Source: Alphaproteobacteria bacterium (lineage in GTDB: Bacteria; Pseudomonadota; Alphaproteobacteria; SMXP01). Taken from it: a stretch of DNA of 54,605 bases. The notes under the pieces are model-generated. The model had not been told where the DNA came from, made no database searches, and saw nothing but the letters and a program-made list of their open reading frames with translations. Position 1 is the first letter of the stretch; every line of letters begins with the position of its first letter. The DNA lies in contig JAJFIO010000054.1 of the NCBI GenBank assembly GCA_021774915.1, positions 1-54,605 on the forward strand, in the 5' to 3' direction. This document shows positions 3,197-31,537 of this stretch, piece by piece. The position numbers and the translations under genes are program-made.

Positions 3197-4017
3197 AGTC
3201 TTTCCCCTGCGCAACGCGCCGATCACCTAGATGTGATCTTTCTATAAGGTGTCCCGCTTTTCGGCAATGGCAGTGACCACAAGCAGTTCAGCAGCTGGGC
3301 GCGTATCTTCAGCAAATCTTGACGGGCCTTGTCAGAAGAGCCATCACGATGGCCCCTCTTTCAAGAGCCGCAATGGAGAATTCTGGCGCAGTGGGCAGGT
3401 GCAGACGAGACCTGCTCTGGGTCGTTTTCCCTGATACACGGGAAAGTACAAGGAAAAATCGTGATTTGGCACTTATACGCGCTGAAGAAGCACAAAAACA
3501 CCAGCACTTCTGCTGTTTTTAGCGCATTTTCCCTAAGAACTTAACAGGGAAAAACTTTGGTGGAACAGTGAAACCCACCGGAAAACCAAAAAACCCTACT
3601 CACACTGTATATTGCCTGAAGAAGGTGGAAGCCGCTCATTATCAATTGGTCTGACCTTGTGATTTTTGGGCCGCCAAACCCGAGACTGTAACGCTCTCAA
3701 AGTCGTCCAGATTTTCACTCAAGTCTTGGCGGCGATGCATATCATCTTATTCTGGGCGTTGAAATAACCGTGCCCTCTGAGGAGGGGGGTTGGAATGGCA
3801 CCATCAGATATATCGTCCTCTACCAACAATCCACGTAGAGATGACTGGTCGGGACGAAGCACGGGCGTTAGATTTCTACGACGATTATGGAGTTGGGTAT
3901 CGGGACTTGGTGGTGTCTTGCTCCCTATAACTGAGCCATATAATTTGTGATATTCTACAAAGTTGAAGCGCTACCCTTGGTTGGGCCACCCGGCTGGAGG
4001 ACTTCCGGGTTTCAGTC

Positions 4018-4917
4018 TCACGGCAGATGAAGTTTTTGATAGGTACAAGGATTTTTTATTGAATACGACGCCGATTGAAACGTGTTTTCGAGCAACATCG
4101 TAACAGTCATCGGCCCGACACCGCCAGGAACCGGCGTGATAAATGATGCTTTTTGCGCGATGCCTTCAAAATCGACATCGCCCGACAAACGTCCGTCCGG
4201 CATTCTGTTAATCCCGACATCGATAACGACGGCACCGGTCTTGACCATTTGAGGCAAAATAAGATTGGGCTTGCCCGCCGCAACCACAAGAATATCCGCC
4301 AGGATTGTAAATTGCGCGAGATCGCGCGTTTTTGCATGACAAATTGCGACAGTGGCGTCTCTCGCCATGAGCATAAGCGCCATCGGCTTCCCAACAATAT
4401 TGCTGGCGCCGACGATGACCACATTTTGCCCTTCAATGTTTATGTTTTCGCTTTCGAGCAACTTGACGACGCCATAAGGCGTGCAAGGCGAAAATATTGT
4501 GTCGCCAATAACGAGCCCTCCAACATTGTATAGGTGAAAACCGTCAACATCCTTCTCAATAGCAATCGCTTCGAGAACCTTGCGCACGTTTACGTGAGTC
4601 GGTAGTGGCAACTGAACCAGAATACCGTGAATGTCCGGGTCGTCGTTCAGTGCCTTAATCTTTTCAATCAGGTCGTCAGTTTCAATTTCAACGCCAAAGC
4701 GCTGCGTAACGGATTTGATTCCAACGCTTCCACAGGCGCGAACTTTGTTGGATACGTACACGGTCGAGGCCGGATCATCGCCGACAAGAATCACGGCCAA
4801 TCCAGGCGTAACACCACTCATTTTTTTCAATGCAGAGATCTTTTCCGCCAGCTCCAAGCGAATGCGCGAAGCCACTGCTTTACCATCAATAATCTTTGCC
4901 AGCACTCTGCCCCCCAT
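4018..4917 (-). CDS. folD: bifunctional methylene-THF dehydrogenase / methenyl-THF cyclohydrolase
   Basis: AKIIDGKAVASRIR..., VILVGDDPASTVYVSNKVRA, LVQLPLP, VVIVGASNIVGKPMA, TPVPGGVGPMTV. Confidence 0.9.
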   Translation of the reverse strand: MGGRVLAKIIDGKAVASRIRLELAEKISALKKMSGVTPGLAVILVGDDPASTVYVSNKVRACGSVGIKSVTQRFGVEIETDDLIEKIKALNDDPDIHGILVQLPLPTHVNVRKVLEAIAIEKDVDGFHLYNVGGLVIGDTIFSPCTPYGVVKLLESENINIEGQNVVIVGASNIVGKPMALMLMARDATVAICHAKTRDLAQFTILADILVVAAGKPNLILPQMVKTGAVVIDVGINRMPDGRLSGDVDFEGIAQKASFITPVPGGVGPMTVTMLLENTFQSASYSIKNPCTYQKLHLP

Positions 4918-6498: not shown

Positions 6499-7368
6499 TT
6501 AACGATCAAAGACGACCGTCCTATTCCCATCAATAATCACTCTGTCTTCCAAATGAAGTTTGACAGCTCGGCTCAACACGCGCCGCTCGATTTCGCGACC
6601 TTTTCGAATTAATCGTTCCGGCGAGTCGGAATGACTAACGTTTTCAACATCTTGCACAATAATTGGACCCTCATCTAACTCGCTTGTAACATAGTGAGCC
6701 GTGGCGCCTATCATTTTGACGCCGCGATCATATGCCTGATGATAGGGTTTTGCGCCTACGAAACTGGGCAAAAAGCTATGATGAATATTGATACAATTGG
6801 TGGCATGCTCATCAGCGAAGTCGTTAGAGAGAATTTGCATATAACGGGCAAGAACCAAGAGTTCAGCACCGGTTGATGAAATTATCTCACGAAGCTCTGA
6901 CTCTTGCTGAGCTTTTGTCTCACGCGTGATCGGCAGATGGTAAAACGGGATGGCGTAATCTGACCTTAGATTCAGACTAACATTCAACTTGTCTTCCGGA
7001 TGATTTGAAACAACCGCGACGATATTCATGTCGAGTTCGCCAATTCGACTTTTGTAGATAAGATCTGCCAAACAATGATCAATCTTAGATACCAGAATAA
7101 GTACGCGAACTTTTTCATCTTCTCTTTTCAGCTTTATGCGAGGATTGCGCAACGCCTCGGACGCCTTTGTCCTTTCTAAAAATAGGCGTCGATCAAATTT
7201 ATTTGGATCAACATCAAAAACGACGCGCATAAAGAAGACGTGATTTACCCTTTCCTCAAACTGGTTGGCTTCTACGATGTTTCCGCCACATTGAAGAATC
7301 CCCGACGCCACGGTGGCAACGACGCCTGGGCGGTCTTCGCATGTCAAAGTTAAAATCAGTCTTTCCAT
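6499..7368 (-). CDS. purU: formyltetrahydrofolate deformylase
   Basis: N-terminal ACT domain (LILTLTCEDRPGVVATVASGI) plus a formyltransferase core (INIHHSFLPSFVGAKPYHQAYDRGVKMIGATAHYVTSELDEGPII). Confidence 0.85.
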   Translation of the reverse strand: MERLILTLTCEDRPGVVATVASGILQCGGNIVEANQFEERVNHVFFMRVVFDVDPNKFDRRLFLERTKASEALRNPRIKLKREDEKVRVLILVSKIDHCLADLIYKSRIGELDMNIVAVVSNHPEDKLNVSLNLRSDYAIPFYHLPITRETKAQQESELREIISSTGAELLVLARYMQILSNDFADEHATNCINIHHSFLPSFVGAKPYHQAYDRGVKMIGATAHYVTSELDEGPIIVQDVENVSHSDSPERLIRKGREIERRVLSRAVKLHLEDRVIIDGNRTVVFDR

Positions 7369-8339: not shown

Positions 8340-9689
8340 TCAAGACTTTGTATAGGGTTTTTCCCGAACAGTAGCTCGAATGGTCGTTTGTATGTGGCGT
8401 TCAACAGTCGGCTTGTTGGTGCCGCCATCCTCCTCTCCCCAAATGATAGTCACGTCGGCGCCTGGTTCAGCGCTCGCTTGATCCATCATCGCTAGGGAGA
8501 TCCAACCGCCAAGATTGGCGGAATAAGCAGGATAAGTCGAAAGACCTACGAGTTTGTCCCCGATCATCACAGAGTCGAAAGGTAACGTGGCGTAATGTGC
8601 GCTCGGCATTTCCATGTATTTAAAGCGGTCGCCATCGTTAAACTGACTTGCGCAAACTTTCAGTACATCATCCTTATTCCAAGAAAGCCAAACTTTTTTC
8701 TTGTGTGGCTCATTCTCCATCTTCCTCAATGCTTCCGCACCAATGAAATCGTGATCGAATTTTATGAAGGAGCCATAACCCATATCCCATGGGGTAACGT
8801 AATAATCTTCGATATTGTTCGATACATAGCTGCCGCCTAATGAAGCCAGCCCTTCAAAACTTCTTGCTGGCAACCATTCGCGATATGATTTCATGTCCTC
8901 GCCGGTATAGATTGCCGGAACAGCCGCTGGTATCCACCCGGATTCAACCGCCGTTGAAGGATATACGCGCGCGCCCATCTGACGTAAGCCCAAATTAGCA
9001 CCGGCCTCGATGAGTATTTCTTTCACCGCATCTCCATATTTTTTTGGACCCCAGAACTCAAACCCAGGGGCGCCGGACATGCGATGATTTAAAGCCGTAA
9101 CTTCATATTCGCCGATCTTAAATTTACCCATTTTGAAAAATTTTATTTCGGGTAAGGGACCGCCATTTGCACACTCGAGAATTTTCTGGGCGGTCGGTCC
9201 CTGCAACTGAAAACGAAACAAAATGCGCTCGTTAGGATTGGTAAAACTGCTCTCGTCGCGAGTCACTTCGACATCGTACCCTCCAGTTTCCGCATTATAT
9301 GCCACCCAATTTGGGACCACAGGCATGCCCACAATGCTAATTTTGTGCTCAGCGTGGCAGCATAAAATTGCGTCGCCTATCATGTAGCCATTATTATTGA
9401 TACAAACGAGCTGCTTGGCCTGCATCGGACCGAATTTGGCGAAGCTGTTTACCCCAACTTTTGACAGCAACTTATAGACGTCCGGCCCTTCAAAAAAAAA
9501 CTCGGTCATGTGGTAAGACATGTCTTGCATCGCTGCGGTTTCCCGCCATGCACGCTGCTCGTCTCGCCAGTTTGAGTATTCTGGTTCGACAGGAAACGGA
9601 AACGGTCCGAGTGGAGAATTCCTTAACATATCGACCGGGTTCCCGATCTGATTGATATGCTCCTCCAGTGACGCGCCCTCAGTCATCAT
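8340..9689 (-). CDS. tetrahydrofolate-dependent aromatic O-demethylase (GcvT-fold, LigM/DesA-like vanillate / 3-O-methylgallate demethylase)
   Basis: From memory it is close to Sphingobium SYK-6 LigM. Shared motifs: GNPVDMLRNS, EYSNWRDEQRAWRE, GAPGFEFWGP, ESGWIPAAVPAIYTGEDMKSYREWLPA, SNNIEDYYVTPWDMGYGSFIKFDHDFIGAEAL. Confidence 0.75.
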   Translation of the reverse strand: MMTEGASLEEHINQIGNPVDMLRNSPLGPFPFPVEPEYSNWRDEQRAWRETAAMQDMSYHMTEFFFEGPDVYKLLSKVGVNSFAKFGPMQAKQLVCINNNGYMIGDAILCCHAEHKISIVGMPVVPNWVAYNAETGGYDVEVTRDESSFTNPNERILFRFQLQGPTAQKILECANGGPLPEIKFFKMGKFKIGEYEVTALNHRMSGAPGFEFWGPKKYGDAVKEILIEAGANLGLRQMGARVYPSTAVESGWIPAAVPAIYTGEDMKSYREWLPARSFEGLASLGGSYVSNNIEDYYVTPWDMGYGSFIKFDHDFIGAEALRKMENEPHKKKVWLSWNKDDVLKVCASQFNDGDRFKYMEMPSAHYATLPFDSVMIGDKLVGLSTYPAYSANLGGWISLAMMDQASAEPGADVTIIWGEEDGGTNKPTVERHIQTTIRATVREKPYTKS

Positions 9690-16337: not shown

Positions 16338-17909
16338 TCAATTTGTAGTGATTAGCACTGAGTGCAGATAGGACGTCAGCGCTTCCGCATCACCAAGCCG
16401 TGCGCGAAAAGCAATGTAACCGTCTGGGCGAACGAGATAGAGCCGCCCAGCGCCATCACTGCCGTAAATTTCACCCAACGCAGCAACATCTTCATCGCTG
16501 GCCATAAACGTTGAAATCGTAGCGCCAAAATTAGCATCTACGGCGTCGCGAATGGCACTCGCTTCGTTACATTCAGATGGTACGCCGACTTGCGGCATTA
16601 GGATAAGTGTATACCCATTGTGCCTGAATCTCTCGAACAGGCGATGCTCCAGCGCTAACTCGACATCCGGGGCACGATCGCCAGCACACGGACCATCTTC
16701 CATATCGTCCGCAGCCGAAGATGATTCCGTCTGGTCTCGGTAAGTGTAGGAGATACCCGCGACTAGCTCTGTCACGGACATTTGCCAATTGGGGGTCTCT
16801 GTCAGGGCCATACGTTCAGACATGCCACGCCCATGAGCCATAATGATGTCATGCATCTGATCTGTCCCATCGATTACCTGCTTGGCGACCGGCAAACGTT
16901 CGGTCTCGTAAGTATCCAACAGCTCCGGTCGTGCCTCGCCGCGCAGCACCATCGCAAGCTTCCAACCCAGATTCCAAGCGTCCTGCAAACAACTGTTCAT
17001 GCCCTGTCCGCCCGATGGCGAATGGATATGCGCAGAATCCCCGCATAGAAAGACATTTTGCTTCCGATAGGCATTTGCGAGACGCTTCCAGATCACCCAG
17101 TTAGTGATCCATTCGGGTTCTTGCACCTTGAACGCGAGATTGTGCTGGTCAATTACGCTCTGAAACGCTTCTACGCGTGACCCTTCCATCTTGGCTGTCT
17201 CGCCCATGTCGCTGATTAACACGCGGCAATTGCCATTTGGCAGAGGCGTTGTAAGCAAAAAGTTCTCATTGATCATGAAGTACTGAACCCAATCGGGGTC
17301 GCAGTCATAATCCTGGACGCTTGCGTCCATCATTTGCATGATCATCCCTTCATAGGCCTCCCCATCAAAGGGCAAGTCCAAGGATTTGCGCACGAAGCTA
17401 TGCACGCCATCACATCCCAGTACGTATGAAGGCTCCATACTGGTTATCTGATCGGATTTCCGGTCGCGGAATTCGACCCGCGATACACCTTCCTCTCCTT
17501 GTTCAAGGTGGCAAAGTTCAGCATTCCACTCGATCTCAATGCCAAAGGCTTCCCGTAAATGTTCCCGTAAAACACGCTCCGTATCCGCCTGGCTGTACAC
17601 CAGCACAAAAGGATACCGCGAACGAAGAACACGGAAATCGAGAACCGGTTTTTTCTCAAGGCCTTTGAAATTAAACAGGAATCCATTGCTTTTCAGCCCG
17701 GTTTCGACGAATCTGTCAGCCAATCCGATTGTTTCAAAAATTTCCAATGTGCGCGCATGAATAGTGAAGGCGCGCGACGTTGTGTTTGGCCCCTCCCTTC
17801 GGTCGATAATGCGGCACGGAATATCGCGGCGGGCAAGTTCAGCCGCCAGCATCATTCCGGTAGGCCCGCCGCCAACAATAAGCACGGGTTTATATTTTTC
17901 CCGGACCAT
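16338..17909 (-). CDS. FAD-dependent aromatic monooxygenase (PheA/TfdB/PcpB family)
   Basis: VLIVGGGPTGMMLAAELA (GxGxxG), DGVHS, GDSAHIHSPSGGQGMN, and a thioredoxin-like C-terminal domain (LYLVRPDGYIAFR). The start is taken at MVREKYKP; the track ORF extends to 17969. Confidence 0.8.
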   Translation of the reverse strand: MVREKYKPVLIVGGGPTGMMLAAELARRDIPCRIIDRREGPNTTSRAFTIHARTLEIFETIGLADRFVETGLKSNGFLFNFKGLEKKPVLDFRVLRSRYPFVLVYSQADTERVLREHLREAFGIEIEWNAELCHLEQGEEGVSRVEFRDRKSDQITSMEPSYVLGCDGVHSFVRKSLDLPFDGEAYEGMIMQMMDASVQDYDCDPDWVQYFMINENFLLTTPLPNGNCRVLISDMGETAKMEGSRVEAFQSVIDQHNLAFKVQEPEWITNWVIWKRLANAYRKQNVFLCGDSAHIHSPSGGQGMNSCLQDAWNLGWKLAMVLRGEARPELLDTYETERLPVAKQVIDGTDQMHDIIMAHGRGMSERMALTETPNWQMSVTELVAGISYTYRDQTESSSAADDMEDGPCAGDRAPDVELALEHRLFERFRHNGYTLILMPQVGVPSECNEASAIRDAVDANFGATISTFMASDEDVAALGEIYGSDGAGRLYLVRPDGYIAFRARLGDAEALTSYLHSVLITTN

Positions 17910-18454
17910 TTCACACCACTCCTTCCTGAGCGTCATGTGCACCGTCGTTTGTGCACCGTCGTTTTCCAAGAATCAGGTTATAGTGAAATGATACCGTACC
18001 GTCTAGTATTATTTATTATCGATCGCTGCCAAGTTTCAAACAGACAACACAAACAGGTATTTTTGGCAGACACGGACGCGGTTTCGAATAAATTAAATTA
18101 AAATCGGCTAAAGCACGCCGATACCAGCATCGTTTCGGCGATATGGCGACAAAAGACCCGGACTGGTATATTGGCGGCCACTTGAAGGAAAGTCTGCAAG
18201 GGTCGGCCAATCTCGCCAAAACGCAGCGCCAAGCACGTCAATTTGAACAATATTGACGAAATAGATGATTTTACGTCGCCGTGAGCCCACGCTTAACGAT
18301 TTTAAATGGTGGACATTTTTATTTTGCCGAACAATGCTTTATGGGAAAGAACAAAGTCCCCCACCCCGCAATCGACCTGATTTATGGTGATGACGCCATC
18401 AAGATGCGGAACCGAGAAAACTAAACTGATGATTTGAAAGAAAGGTGATTCCTG

Positions 18455-22023: not shown

Positions 22024-22127
22024 GATAAAAGGGAGGGGATGGCATAGCCACCCCCTCATTTTTCGTCGTTTAGACTTATTACGACTGTTAGTCCATACCG
22101 ATCAGGATCTGCTACGTTCCCGTGGAC
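22024..22127 (-). ncRNA. tracrRNA (predicted), divergent from cas9
   Basis: Anti-repeat at 22118-22078, complementary to the minus-sense CRISPR repeat: 30 Watson-Crick pairs, 2 G:U pairs, 1 mismatch and a 5-nt bulge. It is followed by an AAUAAGUC linker, an 11-bp GC hairpin and a U tract. The ends are estimated. Confidence 0.7.
22027..22057 (-). terminator. intrinsic terminator of the predicted tracrRNA
   Basis: The minus strand reads GAGGGGGUGGC-UAU-GCCAUCCCCUC followed by CCUUUUAU. The single non-canonical pair is G:U on the minus strand but A:C on the plus strand. Confidence 0.65.
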
Positions 22128-22133
22128 GTTGCA

Positions 22134-22162
22134 ATGGTGATTGACTCTAGCGATCATGTCAA
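22134..22162 (-). promoter_or_regulatory. candidate sigma70-type promoter for tracrRNA
   Basis: The minus strand has TTGACA (22162-22157), a 17-nt spacer and CACCAT (22139-22134). The -10 is weak. Confidence 0.35.
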
Positions 22163-22200
22163 CAACCATGACAGGAAATCGACAGTTGAGAGGGTTTCTT

Positions 22201-25200
22201 ATGGTCGAACCTGCGCGGAAAATGCGATATCGCCTCGGAATTGACGTGGGTGTTGCCTCGCTGGGCATTGCTATCGTGGAACTGGGCAGCCCAACAAGTT
22301 CAACGCAGGGCAACTTTCCAACTCACATAGTTGGTGGATCGGTGCGAACCTGGCCTATTCCCGAGGGAGCCGCCGAACGCCGCCAAAAGCGGGCAATGCG
22401 ACGTAATATTGAACGTCGAGAACGACGTTTGGACAGGCTTTCTGACCTGCTGGCTGAGAATGGACTGGGCTATCCGAGAAAAGGTGTTCCAAAGGAGCTC
22501 TTGGACAAATCCCCCATAAAATTTCGTGCCAAGGGGTCTCGTGAAAAAATCGGATTGGATGAATTCTCCCGAGCCCTGCTTCACATGGCGCGCCATAGAG
22601 GGAGTAGCGCTTTTCGAGAGTCAGATATCAAGGACGAAAAAGAGGCGCGGCAGACAGCCGAAGCTATTCGAAGTCTGCGCAAGGAAATGAAAAGTAAGAA
22701 TTTTGCGACCTACGGCCAGTTCTTGCGTTGGCGTGAAAAAAAGAACCTTCCCATACGTATCAATCAAACAAAAGCCGCTGGTAACAAGGATGAATATGCC
22801 TTCTATCCCAGCCGTGAAATACTTCGTGAAGAATTTGAAGTAATCTGGAATGAGCAGGCGAAATATTATCCCGCCGAATTGACCGTCACATTGAAGGATA
22901 AAATTAAAAATGAACTCTTCTTTCAGCGAGCGATCACCTCTCCTCCTCCCGCAGATTGTCCGTATTTTTCTGATGAGCAAAGAATTGCACGAGCTTCCCG
23001 CTTATTTCAGATCAGGCGTATTTATGAGGAAGTAAATCATTTGCGCTTTTACAAGAAAAATGGAGAGGTGATTGACTACACACTGGAGCAACGCGATCAG
23101 ATTGTAGCTCGGCTCATGTCAGGGGAAACCCTTAGCTTTGCCGAGATCAAAAAGACCATTGGCCTGGACAGAAGGGATAAAGTCAGCCTTGAGAGCGCAA
23201 AAACACGCAAAGGCATTGATGGATATCCGTTTGATGCTGCTTTGGGGCAGGAAGAGGTTCTGGGAAGTATCTGGCTCAACGCCAATGAAGCCAAACAAGA
23301 TGAAATCCTACGAATTCTGGCTACAGAGCACGATGACAAGCTCGCTATTGAGAAACTTTCACGACTTTTGGGCGACGATCAGGATGCGGCCAAACGCACT
23401 CTTCAGGTTCCACTACCCAAGGGCTGGGGTCATATGGGTTTGTCAGCAACGGTCAAGATTTTGAAAGAACTAAAACGTGAAGTCATTCCCGCGCGAGTGG
23501 CCGAGGATAGAGCTGGTCTCTTTCATACATCAACACCTGACGGTGTCATCTATGACCGGCTCCCATATTATGGTGTAGTTTTGCGTGGACACACTGTTAA
23601 GCCCATTTGGGTCTCAAGTTATCGAAGAGATACCGACCACCCACCGAAAACAAATTCGTTAGAGCAAGAATCTGGACGCATTCCAAATCCTGTTGTTCAC
23701 CTCGCTCTCAACCAAATTCGGCAGACAGTGAACGCTGTTATTGAGAAGTATGGCCTTCCCGAAGGTATCCACATCGAGCTTGCGCGCGACCTCAACAAGA
23801 GTGCAGAAGCGCGGGATGAAATTGACAAACAGAACGAGATAAACCGAAAAAAGAACGACACGGTTCGCTCAATTCTTGAAGGACGCAATGTAACGGTCAA
23901 TCATATTAATATTCAAAAATACAAATTGTGGCAGGAGCAAAGTGGAACTTGTGTCTACACAGGAGAACCAATTAACCTGGATCGCCTCTACTCTGATGAC
24001 GTTCATATTGACCATATTCTTCCTCGTTCAAAAACCTATTTGGACTCTATGGCCAACAAAGTTGTCTGCACACGAGGGGCTAATGCCGATAAAGGCAATC
24101 GCACACCCTATGAAGCTTTTTCTCATGATGCTGATACCTGGGCCTCGATTATGCGGCGTGTTAAAAAACTTCACGACAACAAGAAATGGCGTTTCAATGC
24201 AGATGCCATGAAAAATTTCGAGGACGATAGTGAGAGTTTTCGTGCTCGTTATGGGACTGACAATTCCTACATTGCGAGGGTTGCCAGGCAATATTTGAGC
24301 TGCCTGTATGGTGAACCCACTAAGGTTATTGCTGTCTCAAGTCATATTGTTGGACTTTTGCGTGGCAAATGGGGATTACTCAAGATTCTGGGCGAAAAGA
24401 GTACAGGCAAGAAGGCGCGTGATGATCACCGCCATCACTTTATCGATGCCCTGGTCACCGCCTGTGCGACTCGCGGCATGGTTCAGAAAATTCAAACGGA
24501 AGCGGCGCGGTGTGAACGTGAAAATCTGGAAACTTTCGTACAAAAAATCCAACCGCCCTTTGGTGAGTCAAAAGAGTTTTTCAACTCAGCCAGAGAGGCG
24601 ACATTGGAACGTGTCACTCTTTCACGCAAACCTGATCACTCAAATGAGGGGCAACTGCACGAAGATATCTTGCGGGGGATCGTGGACGGGCCGGATAAGT
24701 CTGGAAAATACACCTGCCGAATACAGAAAAAATTAAGCGACTGCGAAACACTTGCCAAATTCGATAAATCGACATTCAAGGCAACCTTGCCCGAACTTCC
24801 CGAAATACGCACAGCAAAGGCGACCCTGGAAGAACTGAAAAACTCAATACGGAATCATATCCACACTGCGAAACAAGAGCTTGAGACAGAACATGCCGCC
24901 GATGTTGCGTCCGGGAAGAAAGGCAAGGCGATATCTGATCACGCGATTTTTTCAAGAGCTGTTAACTTGCATCAGATCGCTGGTGGCAGATCCACCTTCA
25001 CGCTCTATGAAAAAAGCAAACTGGTGAATATACGCCGGAGCAAGAATGGTAATCGTGCGACAGGGGGCTATATCAGCGGAAGAAACCATCGCATGGATTT
25101 CTACCTGGATGGTAAACAGAAAGTGAAATGGCAATGCATTTCCATGTTAGAGGCCAACGATCCCCATTTCGTGCCAGACGCTAAAAGAAAAGGTTGCGAG

Positions 25201-25479
25201 TGGTTGTGGTCAGCCCACAAGGAGGATGTTCTATTGATGGACAATCCTGATAATGCAAATGAACGGATCCGTGTCATTGTCGCAAAATTCAAGAATGGCT
25301 ATCTTGGAGTAATTCCTGAAAGTGATGCCCGGGACTCAAAAGAAAGGACGCTTTGGGAAAAAGGACTCCAATTCTACTACAAGGCCGGCGCGCAACGCAT
25401 TGTTCTTGATGCGCTGGGAGATATAGTCTGGTACTTCCCTGCCCTTCCACGGTCCGGCAAATTAGAGGTAGCTACATGA
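22201..25479 (+). CDS. cas9: Cas9, type II-C
   Basis: RuvC-I motif MRYRLGIDVGVASLGIAIVEL, Arg-rich bridge helix RRQKRAMRRNIERRERRLDRL, HNH motif DIDHILPRSKTYLDSMANKVVC...ANADKGNRTPYEAF, and RuvC-III motif DDHRHHFIDALV. It is about 1090 aa. The start is taken at ATG 22201, with GAGAGGG 6 nt upstream; ATG 22222 is also possible. The track ORF start at 22141 overlaps the tracrRNA promoter. Confidence 0.93.
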   Translation: MVEPARKMRYRLGIDVGVASLGIAIVELGSPTSSTQGNFPTHIVGGSVRTWPIPEGAAERRQKRAMRRNIERRERRLDRLSDLLAENGLGYPRKGVPKELLDKSPIKFRAKGSREKIGLDEFSRALLHMARHRGSSAFRESDIKDEKEARQTAEAIRSLRKEMKSKNFATYGQFLRWREKKNLPIRINQTKAAGNKDEYAFYPSREILREEFEVIWNEQAKYYPAELTVTLKDKIKNELFFQRAITSPPPADCPYFSDEQRIARASRLFQIRRIYEEVNHLRFYKKNGEVIDYTLEQRDQIVARLMSGETLSFAEIKKTIGLDRRDKVSLESAKTRKGIDGYPFDAALGQEEVLGSIWLNANEAKQDEILRILATEHDDKLAIEKLSRLLGDDQDAAKRTLQVPLPKGWGHMGLSATVKILKELKREVIPARVAEDRAGLFHTSTPDGVIYDRLPYYGVVLRGHTVKPIWVSSYRRDTDHPPKTNSLEQESGRIPNPVVHLALNQIRQTVNAVIEKYGLPEGIHIELARDLNKSAEARDEIDKQNEINRKKNDTVRSILEGRNVTVNHINIQKYKLWQEQSGTCVYTGEPINLDRLYSDDVHIDHILPRSKTYLDSMANKVVCTRGANADKGNRTPYEAFSHDADTWASIMRRVKKLHDNKKWRFNADAMKNFEDDSESFRARYGTDNSYIARVARQYLSCLYGEPTKVIAVSSHIVGLLRGKWGLLKILGEKSTGKKARDDHRHHFIDALVTACATRGMVQKIQTEAARCERENLETFVQKIQPPFGESKEFFNSAREATLERVTLSRKPDHSNEGQLHEDILRGIVDGPDKSGKYTCRIQKKLSDCETLAKFDKSTFKATLPELPEIRTAKATLEELKNSIRNHIHTAKQELETEHAADVASGKKGKAISDHAIFSRAVNLHQIAGGRSTFTLYEKSKLVNIRRSKNGNRATGGYISGRNHRMDFYLDGKQKVKWQCISMLEANDPHFVPDAKRKGCEWLWSAHKEDVLLMDNPDNANERIRVIVAKFKNGYLGVIPESDARDSKERTLWEKGLQFYYKAGAQRIVLDALGDIVWYFPALPRSGKLEVAT

Positions 25480-26408
25480 GTTGGCAAATTGTTGACGTTG
25501 TAGAAGATGGGCGCTATCTGCATACAGACCGTGAGTGGATGGTTGTTAAGGAAAATCAGATTGAAATCGGTAGAATACCTTTGACCGATATTCAATCAAT
25601 CCTGGTGCATGCGGGTTATGCCACCTATTCACATGAACTTTTACTGCGTCTGTCTGAATATGATATACCTCTTGTCATCTGTGACCACCGCCATGAACCT
25701 ATTTCCATTCTCCTATCACTGAGCGGTCACCACAAACAGGCCGGTCGCGTAAGGGCGCAATCAGAAAGCACAATACCTGTGAGAAAGCGCGTCTGGCGCG
25801 ACCTTGTAAAGAAGAAGGTTCTTGAACAGGCAAACAGCCTTAAACCATTTGATCGCATCGGACATGACGGCCTTCGAAAATTGGCATCAAAGGTAAAATC
25901 TGGCGACCCGGACAATATTGAGGCTCGTGCAGCCCGATACTATTGGCCACGCCTCTTTGATAAAACCTTTCGAAGAGATCGCAGCCAGCCGGGTCTCAAT
26001 GCACATTTGAATTACGGCTATACTATTCTGCGCTCTGCTGTGGCTCGGGCGATTACCGCCGCTGGCCTTGTACCATCACTGGGTGTTGGGCACGTTAACG
26101 CCCGCAACAATTTCTGTCTTGCCGATGATCTCGTGGAACCATTCCGGCCTTTGGTGGATCGGTTGGTATGGAAAAACCGGAGCAAATGGGCGGACGAATT
26201 GACGCCGGAAGCTCGTAAGGAACTCGCGGGCATGATGTCTAGGTCAATCCGGACGGAAGATGGAGAAACAGACCTCTTTCGTACCATGACGATGGTCGCC
26301 ATCAGTCTGGCAAACCTGTTCGAAGGCACCGTGAGCAAGCTTTATATGCCCGGAAAAGTAGCATTTGTGGACTCACCCCGGTTCCCCGGATTTGAGATCG
26401 GATCGTAA
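25476..26408 (+). CDS. cas1: Cas1 integrase
   Basis: LNYGYTILRSAVARAITAAGLVPSLGVGHVNARNNFCLADDLVEPFRPLVD. ATGA overlap with the cas9 stop. Confidence 0.92.
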   Translation: MSWQIVDVVEDGRYLHTDREWMVVKENQIEIGRIPLTDIQSILVHAGYATYSHELLLRLSEYDIPLVICDHRHEPISILLSLSGHHKQAGRVRAQSESTIPVRKRVWRDLVKKKVLEQANSLKPFDRIGHDGLRKLASKVKSGDPDNIEARAARYYWPRLFDKTFRRDRSQPGLNAHLNYGYTILRSAVARAITAAGLVPSLGVGHVNARNNFCLADDLVEPFRPLVDRLVWKNRSKWADELTPEARKELAGMMSRSIRTEDGETDLFRTMTMVAISLANLFEGTVSKLYMPGKVAFVDSPRFPGFEIGS

Positions 26409-26440: not shown

Positions 26441-26767
26441 GTGCTTTCATCGTACAAGATTATGTGGCTGCTCGTTGTTTTTGACCTGCCTGTCGGCTCA
26501 AAGAGTGAACGACGCAGGGCAACGGGCTTTCGAAATAGGCTGCTCGACGAGGGTTTTTTTATGAAACAATTCTCGGTCTACCTGAGATCATGCCCCAACC
26601 GGCCAAGCGCAGAGGCCCTAGCGGACCGAATTGGCAAAAACGCGCCGCCAGAAGGAGATGTTTCAATTTTATTTTTCACCGACAAACAATATGGCCTCAC
26701 CCGGAATTACGCGGGCAAAGCCATTAAAGAAACCGAAGAAAAACCACCTCAGCTTCTATTATTCTAG
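26441..26767 (+). CDS. cas2: Cas2
   Basis: MWLLVVFDLPVGSKSERRRATGFRNRLLDEGFFMKQFSVYLR ferredoxin-like fold pattern. The start is GTG 26441 or ATG 26462. Confidence 0.88.
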   Translation: MLSSYKIMWLLVVFDLPVGSKSERRRATGFRNRLLDEGFFMKQFSVYLRSCPNRPSAEALADRIGKNAPPEGDVSILFFTDKQYGLTRNYAGKAIKETEEKPPQLLLF

Positions 26768-26839
26768 CGCGTTTATGTTGTTTTTAAAGCACCCATATTC
26801 AAGTAACATGTTGTTTTAATTCATCTTAAGAAGATCGGT

Positions 26840-28130
26840 AGTGTAGCAGATGCTGATCGGTATGGCAGCCGTAACAATGGGCGCTACACGCCGCCCGTCG
26901 ACCCCAGTGTAGCAGATGCTGATCGGTATGGCAGCCGTAACCAGAGCGAAGCAATATGTTTCAGCCACATTAGTGTAGCAGATGCTGATCGGTATGGCAG
27001 CCGTAACGTGAACGGCGCAACGTAATCTAGTTTCTTCAGTGTAGCAGATGCTGATCGGTATGGCAGCCGTAACTGGTGGACTTCCAGATTGTGGGCGATC
27101 TCTAGTGTAGCAGATGCTGATCGGTATGGCAGCCGTAACAGTAATGTCAGCCTCAATTGTCGCCTGATTAGTGTAGCAGATGCTGATCGGTATGGCAGCC
27201 GTAACAGCATAGACGGCATAATAGAATCAATAACGTAGTGTAGCAGATGCTGATCGGTATGGCAGCCGTAACCTAATTTTTGTATGGGATTGCTCAATAT
27301 GAAGTGTAGCAGATGCTGATCGGTATGGCAGCCGTAACAACCAACCATTGGGGTGTAAGAGTTCTGGAAGTGTAGCAGATGCTGATCGGTATGGCAGCCG
27401 TAACCGTCATCACTCGCGGCGCGTCCAATCCGTCAGTGTAGCAGATGCTGATCGGTATGGCAGCCGTAACAACCAACCATTGGGGTGTAAGAGTTCTGGA
27501 AGTGTAGCAGATGCTGATCGGTATGGCAGCCGTAACTCTCATCCCACTGCTCGCCGGACACCATCCAGTGTAGCAGATGCTGATCGGTATGGCAGCCGTA
27601 ACTGGTACGCCGATGTGGTGTTCGAGACTTCGAGTGTAGCAGATGCTGATCGGTATGGCAGCCGTAACTAAGATCGGCCCTGTAAAGATCGGCCCCGCAG
27701 TGTAGCAGATGCTGATCGGTATGGCAGCCGTAACTTAGTGTTTCATCCATCACCAGCTCCCTCCAGTGTAGCAGATGCTGATCGGTATGGCAGCCGTAAC
27801 AGCGTGAATGTTCATTTGCCGTGGCTGATAAGTGTAGCAGATGCTGATCGGTATGGCAGCCGTAACTCCATCTGTTATGTCAATTACCATCCGACAAGTG
27901 TAGCAGATGCTGATCGGTATGGCAGCCGTAACTGTGATATCAGCCTCAATCGTCGCCTGATTAGTGTAGCAGATGCTGATCGGTATGGCAGCCGTAACTG
28001 GTGTTCTTTGTTCTTCCGTTAAATAGTGAGTGTAGCAGATGCTGATCGGTATGGCAGCCGTAACGGTTTGGGTATTTTATAAGAATACAAATCAAGTGTA
28101 GCAGATGCTGATCGGTATGGCAGATCCACA
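26840..28130 (-). CRISPR. CRISPR array: 20 repeats of 36 bp (19 identical plus 1 degenerate at 28095-28130) and 19 spacers (18 of 30 bp, one of 31 bp)
   Basis: The plus-strand repeat is AGTGTAGCAGATGCTGATCGGTATGGCAGCCGTAAC. Repeats start at 26840, 26906, 26972, 27038, 27104, 27170, 27237, and then every 66 bp to 28095. The crRNA sense is inferred as minus (GTTACGGCTGCCATACCGATCAGCATCTGCTACACT). This rests on tracrRNA complementarity and on resemblance to the Neisseria II-C repeat. A 72-bp AT-rich stretch (26768-26839) separates the array from cas2. Confidence 0.97.
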
Positions 28131-28132
28131 AG

Positions 28133-28158
28133 CCCCCCGTGTTTAGTAACACGGGGGG
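28133..28158. terminator. 11-bp GC-rich hairpin at the cas-distal end of the array
   Basis: CCCCCCGTGTT-TAGT-AACACGGGGGG, followed by TTCT on the plus strand. Only a short T run follows on either strand. Confidence 0.5.
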
Positions 28159-28400
28159 TTCTAAATACATGGGACCGGATCGAGCGTGCCGAATTTGATA
28201 TTTTTGGAGGATGGGGGCTTGCCGCTGGAGCAGCTCAACGGATCCACCCCTTGCCCCGCAAAGAACCTCCCAGACAAAAAGCAGGAATTTTTTAGCCTTT
28301 CATGGCTGCCCATAGGTCATATGGGCTTATTTTTCCCGTTCTCACGCAGTGCACAATCAGACCCAAAAATATCGATAGAAAAAACGAATCAGTAAGGGCT

Positions 28401-28481: not shown

Positions 28482-28559
28482 GATATTTTTTGTTGCGAAA
28501 CGAGAAATATGGTTATTTATAGATGGCTCCATTTGAAATCCAGCAATAAGGAGCCAAGA

Positions 28560-29663
28560 ATGAGTGAGACATTTTCCGGATTTGACAAGACAGAAACCTA
28601 TCCGCTTCTACTTTCAGGATTCGATACCCTCGAAGTCAGCTATTTCGTCAATGTCCCGTCAAGTGACCTTGATCTTGAGGATCTGGAATACCGCAAGGAA
28701 AGCCTCAAAGCGAATTACGGTGACGGGTTTGACAAGGTTCGTCTGGGAACAGAGACCTTCGCCCTCAAACCTTACGGCCGGGATAAATACAAGTTCGTCC
28801 TGTCGAACAAGTCCTTTGAGGTTCTGCTCGCTGAACACATGCGGCCAAGCTGCCGCGTAAAATTCTTCAGCGAGGCTCTCTGGCATGAGGGCCTTCAGGG
28901 GCTGATGGATCGTTTTGAACTCTGGTGCAAATCATTATCACTTGTTGCTTTCCGGCCTGAGACCGTGGGCCGTGCCGACTGGGCCTTCGACTACCATGTC
29001 CCGCGCGTCGATTTTAGCTGGGACGACTTTGTCTCCCGCGTACGCAAGGACAATGCCTATCGCGAGTCAGGCGTGGTTCAGACGTTTCAGTTCGGCAAGT
29101 CTGACATCGTGGTGCGGGTCTATGACAAGGTTGCTGAGATCGAAGAAAAAAGCGGAAAAGTGTGGTTCTATGATCTGTGGGGCCGCAAGAGCAGCGTCTG
29201 GCGGATCGAGTTCCAACTTCGGCGGGACGCCCTTAAGAGTCACGGCATCGGATCACTTGAGAGCCTGCTCGACTTGCAGAACGATACTCTGTTTCACCTT
29301 GCGCACACTCACACCACCCTTCGCAGACCCAATGGCGACAGCAATCGCTCTCGCTGGCCGCTGCACCCATTGTGGGACGCCCTGCAGAAACACATTGAGG
29401 ATCTGCCACGAAGCGGCCTGGTGCGGGCCTTCGATGAGAAGAAGGCCTTGGACTATCGCCTCTTCAAGCAATCGCAGGGCATTTACGGACATCTGAAGGG
29501 GCTTATGGCGCTGGAATGCATCAGGACAGGGAAACCTGCATCAAGCACCCTGAGGGAAGTCCTGGAACGCCTCAGACCGCATCTTGAAGATCATCACCAT
29601 TCCATCCCATGGGAGGCGGATGTTGAAAAACGGGTCAGGGCATACGAGGTAGGCCAGTGGTAA
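28560..29663 (+). CDS. replication initiation factor (Rep_trans / RstA-like rolling-circle initiator or relaxase)
   Basis: VQTFQFGKSDIVVRVYDKVAEIEEKSG...SSVWRIEFQLRRDAL fits the recalled Rep_trans pattern (T.Y.G.R.S...R.YDK..E....W.R.E.E.R). The start is ATG 28560, with AAGGAG 7 nt upstream. Confidence 0.6.
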   Translation: MSETFSGFDKTETYPLLLSGFDTLEVSYFVNVPSSDLDLEDLEYRKESLKANYGDGFDKVRLGTETFALKPYGRDKYKFVLSNKSFEVLLAEHMRPSCRVKFFSEALWHEGLQGLMDRFELWCKSLSLVAFRPETVGRADWAFDYHVPRVDFSWDDFVSRVRKDNAYRESGVVQTFQFGKSDIVVRVYDKVAEIEEKSGKVWFYDLWGRKSSVWRIEFQLRRDALKSHGIGSLESLLDLQNDTLFHLAHTHTTLRRPNGDSNRSRWPLHPLWDALQKHIEDLPRSGLVRAFDEKKALDYRLFKQSQGIYGHLKGLMALECIRTGKPASSTLREVLERLRPHLEDHHHSIPWEADVEKRVRAYEVGQW

Positions 29664-29848
29664 GGCATATCGATGACCCGGCAGGCCCAAAGAGCAAACC
29701 GCTTAAAGCCGACAATGACAACGGGTTGGATGTTGAGGAGGTCTGGCCTGAAGTCATCTTCGTGACAGAAAACGAACTCCGGCTTCTCGAAACGAGATTT
29801 ACGGATATAATCTCAGAAATTGTAGCGGCCAATGACAATAATCCCTGA
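29657..29848 (+). CDS. hypothetical small acidic protein (63 aa)
   Basis: GTG start overlapping the rep stop; the 3' end overlaps the upstream extension of the recombinase ORF. By my count it has 14 Asp/Glu against 6 Lys/Arg. No recognisable motif. Confidence 0.4.
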   Translation: MVRHIDDPAGPKSKPLKADNDNGLDVEEVWPEVIFVTENELRLLETRFTDIISEIVAANDNNP

Positions 29849-29873
29849 TAAGGGATCCTGGAAAAGGCAAGAT

Positions 29874-31537
<1,664 letters not shown>

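Follow-up and report, generated by a model that had tools for sequence, protein, structure and literature searches.

A type II-C CRISPR array with two spacers that appear to target one segment of PM2-type capsid genes

The window analyzed here is a whole 54.6-kb contig, and it carries a complete type II-C CRISPR–Cas9 locus consisting of a candidate tracrRNA, cas9, cas1, cas2, and a 19-spacer array. The features are as follows.

22026 to 22118, minus strand: candidate tracrRNA, an anti-repeat followed by a stem-loop and then an intrinsic terminator.
22141 to 25479, plus strand: cas9; the longest open reading frame has 1112 residues from a TTG start, and the database gene call has 1092 residues.
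25476 to 26408, plus strand: cas1 (Pfam Cas_Cas1, E 7e-31).
26441 to 26767, plus strand: cas2 (Pfam CRISPR_Cas2, E 2e-16); the true start is likely the ATG at 26462, which gives a 101-residue protein.
26768 to 26839, no strand assigned: the 72-nt interval between cas2 and the array, the presumed insertion end of the array.
26840 to 28130, minus strand: CRISPR array of 20 repeats and 19 spacers, with predicted minus-strand transcription heading to cas2; the orientation is taken from complementarity to the tracrRNA.
27140 to 27169, minus strand: spacer 5, crRNA sense AATCAGGCGACAATTGAGGCTGACATTACT, which translates to NQATIEADIT.
27339 to 27368, minus strand: spacer 8, identical to spacer 10.
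27471 to 27500, minus strand: spacer 10, identical to spacer 8.
27933 to 27962, minus strand: spacer 17, crRNA sense AATCAGGCGACGATTGAGGCTGATATCACA, which translates to NQATIEADIT.
28095 to 28130, minus strand: degenerate terminal repeat, conserved over its first 29 plus-strand nucleotides only and marking the old (trailer) end.

The cas9 product contains the Pfam domains HNH_4 (2e-19), RuvC_III (2e-14), and Cas9_a. The nearest solved structures are Cas9 proteins of 1055 to 1154 residues (E 8e-59 and weaker), which we take to be type II-C enzymes. The protein is 59 to 67% identical to enzymes from Rhodospirillales, Varunaivibrio, and Parvibaculum, and its closest named homologues are those of Varunaivibrio (63%) and Parvibaculum (59%). 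The adaptation module consists of cas1 and cas2 directly after cas9, without the csn2 of type II-A or the cas4 of type II-B systems. The 101-residue call for cas2 derives from L003. A LysR regulator and a glyoxalase-fold protein are encoded upstream of the cas locus.

The remainder of the window contains the chromosomal genes polA, ahcY, ptsI, pabB, and a gene for a ChvG-like sensor kinase. PolA is 64 to 67% identical to proteins named as Alphaproteobacteria MAGs, Parvibaculum, Pyruvatibacter, and Ca. Phaeomarinobacter. Judged from this gene content, the locus is chromosomal, and the host is an uncultured marine alphaproteobacterium that appears roughly Parvibaculales-like by PolA. The window proteins fall in singleton clusters. 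The same array was not found in related genomes, and the Cas1 was encountered elsewhere only on a 1.6-kb contig. A Rep_trans-like gene and a serine integrase gene beside the array were considered as a corticovirus remnant and rejected; they have no similarity to any retrieved viral locus.

The sense of the guides follows from the region upstream of cas9. A diverged copy of the repeat, in its minus-strand reading, sits on the plus strand just upstream of the gene, so a minus-strand transcript of this region is an anti-repeat. The anti-repeat runs from 22118 down to 22078 and reads AACGTAGCAGATCCTGATCGGTATGG-ACTAA-CAGTCGTAAT. Its cofold energy with the repeat in minus-strand sense is −51.9 kcal/mol, for a structure with near full-length pairing and a 5-nt bulge. 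The terminator is on the minus strand, with a stem at 22057 to 22033 and a T-tract. This anti-repeat and terminator upstream of cas9 establish the minus strand as the crRNA sense, which bears out the orientation that had been assumed in an earlier note on this DNA. The terminal degenerate repeat and its hairpin (28095 to 28162) were also considered as the tracrRNA. This candidate was rejected because it has other bases at the seven positions needed for pairing with the beginning of the crRNA repeat. By eye, the TGCTACACT at the end of the repeat looks like an extended −10 element. A two-hexamer promoter scan, a design that does not address extended −10 promoters, found no promoter in the array.

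The repeat is 36 nt long and occurs in 20 copies (plus strand, AGTGTAGCAGATGCTGATCGGTATGGCAGCCGTAAC), and the 19 full copies are all identical. Spacer length is 30 nt throughout, apart from the 31-nt spacer 6. On the plus strand, spacer 5 reads AGTAATGTCAGCCTCAATTGTCGCCTGATT and spacer 17 reads TGTGATATCAGCCTCAATCGTCGCCTGATT; their sequences, coordinates, and shared register are exactly as the earlier note gave them. The two spacers are identical at 26 of 30 positions. The mismatches are at plus-strand positions 1, 4, 7, and 19, corresponding to positions 30, 27, 24, and 12 in the crRNA sense. The affected codon pairs are ACA/ACG, GAC/GAT, ATT/ATC, and ACT/ACA. Six-frame translation identifies frame 1 of the crRNA sense as the only open frame with no residue change, and it encodes NQATIEADIT in both spacers. 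All four changes are nonsynonymous in the mirror antisense frame, and three other frames contain stops. The claim that the four differences are third-codon positions of a single frame is thus confirmed by the translation.

Several calculations bear on whether this likeness could be accidental. The expected number of pairs with 26/30 identity among the 171 spacer pairs is calculated as ~3e-10. In 50,000 simulations, four random changes shared one codon phase with p = 0.022 and left the peptide of some open frame unaltered with p = 0.0056. The likeness between spacers 5 and 17 is not credibly a product of chance. When every spacer was compared with every other, with offsets and on both strands, the sole further related pair was spacers 8 and 10, which are identical. 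The spacers flanking spacer 5 and those flanking spacer 17 are not related to one another.

The target was sought with the pattern AAYCARGCNACNATHGARGCNGAYATHAC, a back-translation of NQATIEADIT that was scanned over IMG/VR, GTDB genomes, and JGI metagenomes. The 596 Gb of GTDB reference genomes contain one match, where ~0.04 were expected by calculation. The JGI metagenomes contain none. The GTDB match is in frame within a 271-residue open reading frame on a contig of 9.5 kb that was assigned to a Sulfurimonas MAG (L002), and the local sequence reads '...YKTNANQATIEADITEIRVKVGG...'. This protein and all of its 83 homologues contain at least one of the PM2 capsid Pfam domains P2_N and P2_C, and 77 contain both. 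A profile of the family matches the structures of the PM2 capsid protein P2 (2VVF/2W0C) with E 1e-23 and 9T9V, annotated as 'double jelly roll capsid protein', with 8.5e-26. A gene for a Zot/FtsK-like P-loop packaging ATPase adjoins the capsid gene, and small membrane-protein genes surround the two. Double-jelly-roll viruses of the PM2 group share this pairing of capsid gene and packaging ATPase as a conserved feature (PMC5894146). When compared as peptides with the corticovirus-like loci, spacers 5 and 17 score 48, and the maximum of the shuffled null is 40. These data support the NQATIEADIT segment of PM2-type capsid genes as the predicted target of both spacers. The target is newly identified, and the phenomenon itself is already known.

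Additional family DNA was taken from IMG/VR, JGI/TARA metagenomes, and Logan assemblies. The homologous 30-mer is present and in frame at a total of 19 capsid-gene sites, distributed over 18 loci. These sites represent 16 unique sequences of site plus flank. The sites are identical to the spacers at 19 to 26 of 30 positions. The best matches are L002 to spacer 5 and L017 to spacer 17, each with 26/30. Ten of these unique sequences encode the full decapeptide, and these ten depart from spacer 5 only by wobble changes. All ten wobble sites vary freely among the natural homologues, and one locus (L020) contains all four of the distinguishing codons of spacer 17 (ACG, GAT, ATC, and ACA). The earlier note had predicted a single protospacer in a protein-coding gene, and the homologous sites are in coding DNA on the predicted strand and in the predicted frame. 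They also place both spacers at the same locus rather than at unrelated ones.

The decapeptide had seemed to be the most conserved segment of the capsid, an impression from word-indexed searches that was overturned by an index-free HMM search. This search recovered 1,741 cluster representatives of the capsid family. Exact NQATIEADIT was absent from all of the best 147 of these 1,741 representatives, and the segments PIFFSEPWRR and VGAGQTAT are more conserved in the family. By the sequences compared, NQATIEADIT appears as the mark of a subclade and not of the whole capsid family. The nearest INPHARED matches to this clade by tblastn are Vibrio corticovirus-like and autolykivirus-like phages with 26 to 28% identity. 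No cultured or catalogued phage belonging to the clade was found in the collections searched.

The 12 nt that lie 3′ of the site in the 16 unique sequences usually begin with GAA-ATY-CGN, which encodes Glu/Gln-Ile-Arg. The more general x-Ile-Arg (NNN-ATY-CGN) is present in 13 of the 16 unique flanks. Conservation is highest at +5 (T, 16/16), +7 (C, 15/16), and +8 (G, 15/16), followed by +4 (A, 13/16). The 3′ flank of L024 differs from those of the other family members.

No protospacer above 26/30 was detected in IMG/VR, GTDB genomes, JGI metagenomes, INPHARED phages, PLSDB plasmids, or the 20 capsid-gene loci. Because the best match is 26/30, the donors are reconstructed from homologues and the PAM is bracketed rather than defined. 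The database search and flank extraction proposed in the earlier note therefore yielded in-frame capsid-gene homologues and the usual 3′ flank NNNATYCG, but neither an exact protospacer nor the PAM itself. The 18 unique spacers, concatenated, gave only subsignificant matches of 21 to 27 nt by blastn against INPHARED phages and PLSDB plasmids, and IMG/VR contained no exact match to 24-mers of spacers 1, 2, and 8. None of the other spacers rose above the shuffled null against the corticovirus-like loci, either by nucleotide comparison (at least 20/30) or by six-frame peptide comparison. Within the 54.6-kb window there is no off-array match of at least 23/30 that would indicate self-targeting, and there is no PM2-type capsid gene.

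The explanation that we consider quite probable is that one 30-bp segment of PM2-like capsid genes was acquired twice, from two donors with four wobble differences, and that spacer 17 was acquired first. Spacers 17 and 5 would have entered the array on separate occasions from PM2-like viruses or proviruses. The two donor genomes would have encoded the same decapeptide, NQATIEADIT, and differed at the four wobble sites. The pair is best accounted for by two independent acquisitions. Spacer 17 is probably the older and spacer 5 the newer, because spacer 5 is nearer the insertion end at cas2 and the opposite end holds the degenerate repeat.

The identical register of the two spacers can be explained by the 3′ sequence, which in the majority of the family encodes x-Ile-Arg. 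NNNATYCG is a possible location for the PAM of this Cas9. A PAM in this position would sit at an equal offset in most members of the capsid clade, and PAM-dependent, Cas9-guided spacer selection would then excise the same 30-mer from different donors.

The 3′ end of a type II guide adjoins the repeat and is PAM-proximal. Given the minus-strand crRNA sense, the differences between spacers 5 and 17 are therefore at positions 1, 4, 7, and 19 counted from the PAM-proximal end. Three of the four lie in the PAM-proximal 7 nt, in agreement with the earlier note. PAM-proximal mismatches in the Cas9 seed generally block cleavage, and three mismatches in these 7 nt should keep either guide from cutting the opposite variant. 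No cross-protection is thus expected between spacers 5 and 17. Each guide would cleave its own variant only, and the pair would broaden immunity rather than be redundant.

How closely the donors were related was judged from seven full capsid genes. Pairs whose proteins are only 36 to 66% identical differ by as few as 3 to 5 nt at the site, a range that holds for pairs of similar G+C content. Four differences therefore fit anything from an escape mutant through to two quite different viruses, and by this calibration close kinship between the two donors is not required. The earlier note had called the spacers allelic and attributed them to diverged relatives of one element. The part of this claim that concerns a shared protospacer in a coding gene stands, but the closeness that it implies is too strong.

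A narrower version of the double acquisition is an arms race within one virus lineage, in which synonymous changes in the seed allowed escape from spacer 17 and reimmunization at the same PAM site produced spacer 5. This reading is a special case of the double acquisition, with selection for changes in the seed and a causal sequence as its extra assumptions, and we regard it as possible but rather unlikely. Its attraction is that three of the four differences occupy the three most PAM-proximal wobble sites (p = 7/210 = 0.033 for random placement over ten wobble sites) and that the newer spacer is the one nearer cas2. However, the seed window was picked post hoc, and a 12-nt seed with four wobble sites gives p = 0.12. 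Unrelated family members with 36 to 66% protein identity are separated by equally few changes here, and the free variation at ten of ten wobble sites among natural homologues also weakens the case for seed-directed selection. Whether or not one lineage was involved, the double hit itself calls for comment. A ~10-kb genome holds roughly 5 to 1,700 candidate sites for PAMs compatible with the flank, so uniform sampling would rarely take the same site twice. This implies that some acquisition bias or selection was needed. One proposal is a priming-like update, in which Cas9 carrying the outdated spacer 17 would bind the variant site and bias Cas1–Cas2 to recapture the 30-mer; an acquisition hot spot is the other form of this proposal. 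We assign it a low probability, and we know of no description of a priming-like refresh of an obsolete spacer in type II systems. If it were true, recapture at the same site would have left another trace in spacers 8 and 10, whose sequences are identical.

Two further explanations dispense with a pair of PM2-like donors. Duplication within the array by repeat-mediated recombination, followed by four point mutations in the copy, draws on the identity of spacers 8 and 10, a pair that may have arisen in the same way and that shows that units can recur in this array, and on the lack of an exact protospacer that would prove either variant viral. However, a set of four random mutations is wholly synonymous in an open frame in only 0.56% of cases, and the identity of all 19 full repeats means that point mutation in the array is rare. 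The neighbors of spacer 5 are unrelated to those of spacer 17, and both codon sets occur in real capsid genes, with that of spacer 17 in L020. Duplication is accordingly very improbable. The remaining candidate is the opposite strand at the 3′ end of an HK97-fold capsid gene, as suggested by the only pattern match in IMG/VR. This match (contig L001, 7322 to 7350) is antisense and in codon register within a 408-residue Phage_capsid open reading frame (Pfam E 9e-52), and its chance expectation is ~0.004 if IMG/VR is taken as ~60 Gb, both figures being estimates. Against it, the antisense frame has four nonsynonymous changes and no synonymous ones (SNVSLNCRLI versus CDISLNRRLI), the spacer peptides match only two to three of ten residues of GYIRFDGCLV in L001, and the nucleotide match (20 to 21 of 30) is the minimum that the pattern permits. 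At the 19 double-jelly-roll capsid-gene sites, it is the sense frame that matches. The match to the last codons of this HK97-type gene was judged a coincidence, although an improbable one, and we give an HK97-fold target almost no credence.

Two acquisitions from PM2-like donors would mean that this host encountered PM2-like membrane-containing phages of an uncultured clade on two or more occasions. The spacers provide a concrete virus–host link for a kind of phage of which, to our knowledge, few hosts have been identified. The pair is also a clean natural example in which the target protein is constrained, the virus varies at wobble positions only, and the host keeps one spacer for each variant. 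The flank NNNATYCG brackets the possible location of the PAM for an uncharacterized II-C Cas9. What is new here is the identity of the target, the orientation of the guides, and the bracketed PAM region. The pair is otherwise a tidy but ordinary record of repeated immunization that leaves the understanding of CRISPR unchanged.

The locus shares its cas9–cas1–cas2 operon and the absence of csn2 and cas4 with the type II-C systems of Neisseria meningitidis, Campylobacter jejuni, and Riemerella anatipestifer. It also has in common with type II-C systems the 36-nt repeats, the 30-nt spacers, and a tracrRNA with a bulged anti-repeat, here a candidate. The array lies downstream of cas2 and is transcribed toward the cas genes, as in those systems. 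The repeat of the N. meningitidis system contains an embedded extended −10 element, TGCTACAAT, which the repeat end TGCTACACT resembles. New units are inserted at the cas2 end in II-C systems (PMC6008519), and Cas9 selects PAM-flanked prespacers in the type II-C system of Neisseria (PMC12477760). The similarity of this Cas9 to the solved II-C enzymes is mainly in the HNH/RuvC core, with the best stretch at about residues 513 to 869, and the best stretches exclude the C-terminal PAM-interacting region. Unlike the named II-C systems, this one belongs to an uncultured marine alphaproteobacterium.

The target family has the same P2_N and P2_C domains and the same size (~270 residues) as P2, the major capsid protein of corticovirus PM2 (2VVF/2W0C). 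In the closest solved homologue, 9T9V, the decapeptide is absent from the profile alignment shown, unlike in the NQATIEADIT clade. The target loci resemble PM2-group viruses and proviruses in the adjacent Zot/FtsK-like ATPase gene, the small membrane-protein genes, and the ~10-kb size of the contigs. Such viruses and proviruses were reportedly described by Krupovic and Bamford in 2007. They are also the subject of Yutin et al. 2018 (PMC5894146). Two independent acquisitions of one protospacer have been reported for a Legionella type I-C system (PMC5071653), and synonymous and nonsynonymous protospacer variants between related phages have been reported for C. difficile (PMC4173771). In contrast to those cases, both variants are present here in one natural type II-C array, and the predicted target is a PM2-like capsid gene.

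The CRISPR array ends in a degenerate repeat that is followed directly by a strong G+C hairpin, GCCCCCCGTGT-TTAGTAA-CACGGGGGGT (window 28095-28165). The terminal repeat retains its first 29 nucleotides, and the remainder is not conserved. The hairpin may have a role such as a terminator or an insulator where the array stops. The combination of terminal repeat and hairpin was considered as a tracrRNA and then discarded. The candidate tracrRNA is located elsewhere in the window:

22026-22118, minus strand, candidate tracrRNA, divergent from cas9

Its repeat:anti-repeat duplex contains a 5-nucleotide bulge, and its terminator stem is 11 bp long.

Three peculiarities were observed among the spacers. 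Spacer 8 (27339-27368) and spacer 10 (27471-27500) are the same 30-mer separated by the unrelated spacer 9, an identity that reflects either reacquisition of the same protospacer or a duplication followed by a deletion. A target for this 30-mer was looked for and none was found. Spacer 13 (27669-27698) contains an internal direct repeat, with two copies of GGCCGATCTT in the crRNA sense. Spacer 6 (27206-27236) is 31 nucleotides long, compared to the usual 30.

Three features lie immediately past the array.

28509-29663, Rep_trans-like ORF (Pfam E 8e-5, which misses the cutoff; no match in PHROG)
29832-31526, large serine integrase (phrog_95, E 1e-107)
31461-31537, tRNA-Arg(CCG), on the strand opposite to the integrase and overlapping the 3' end of its ORF

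The segment 28509-31537 looks like a small integrated element. A search for att repeats at this element found none, and it has no similarity to the corticovirus-like loci, the retrieved contigs that carry PM2-type capsid genes. Two enzyme genes are also found on the contig:

8340-9689 and 16338-17969, syringate/vanillate O-demethylase-like enzyme and aromatic-ring FAD monooxygenase

These genes are adjoined by a TonB-dependent receptor, and together the three hint that the host degrades lignin-derived aromatics.

Two viral contigs merit separate description. In L001 (IMGVR_UViG_3300001472_001250), an IMG/VR contig, the back-translated pattern of the decapeptide encoded by spacers 5 and 17 is matched in antisense at 7322-7350, inside the 3'-terminal codons of a capsid gene of the HK97 type. 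An estimated 0.004 or so chance matches to the pattern are expected in the IMG/VR collection, and the match is judged an unlikely coincidence with no visible biological link. In L017, the Logan SRR11558591 contig of a PM2-like virus, the gene at 3791-4171 has a precomputed match to Pfam Acb2_Tad1_hairpin. Acb2 and Tad1 are anti-CBASS and anti-Thoeris proteins that act as signal sponges, and this gene would be an anti-defense gene of a corticovirus-like genome.
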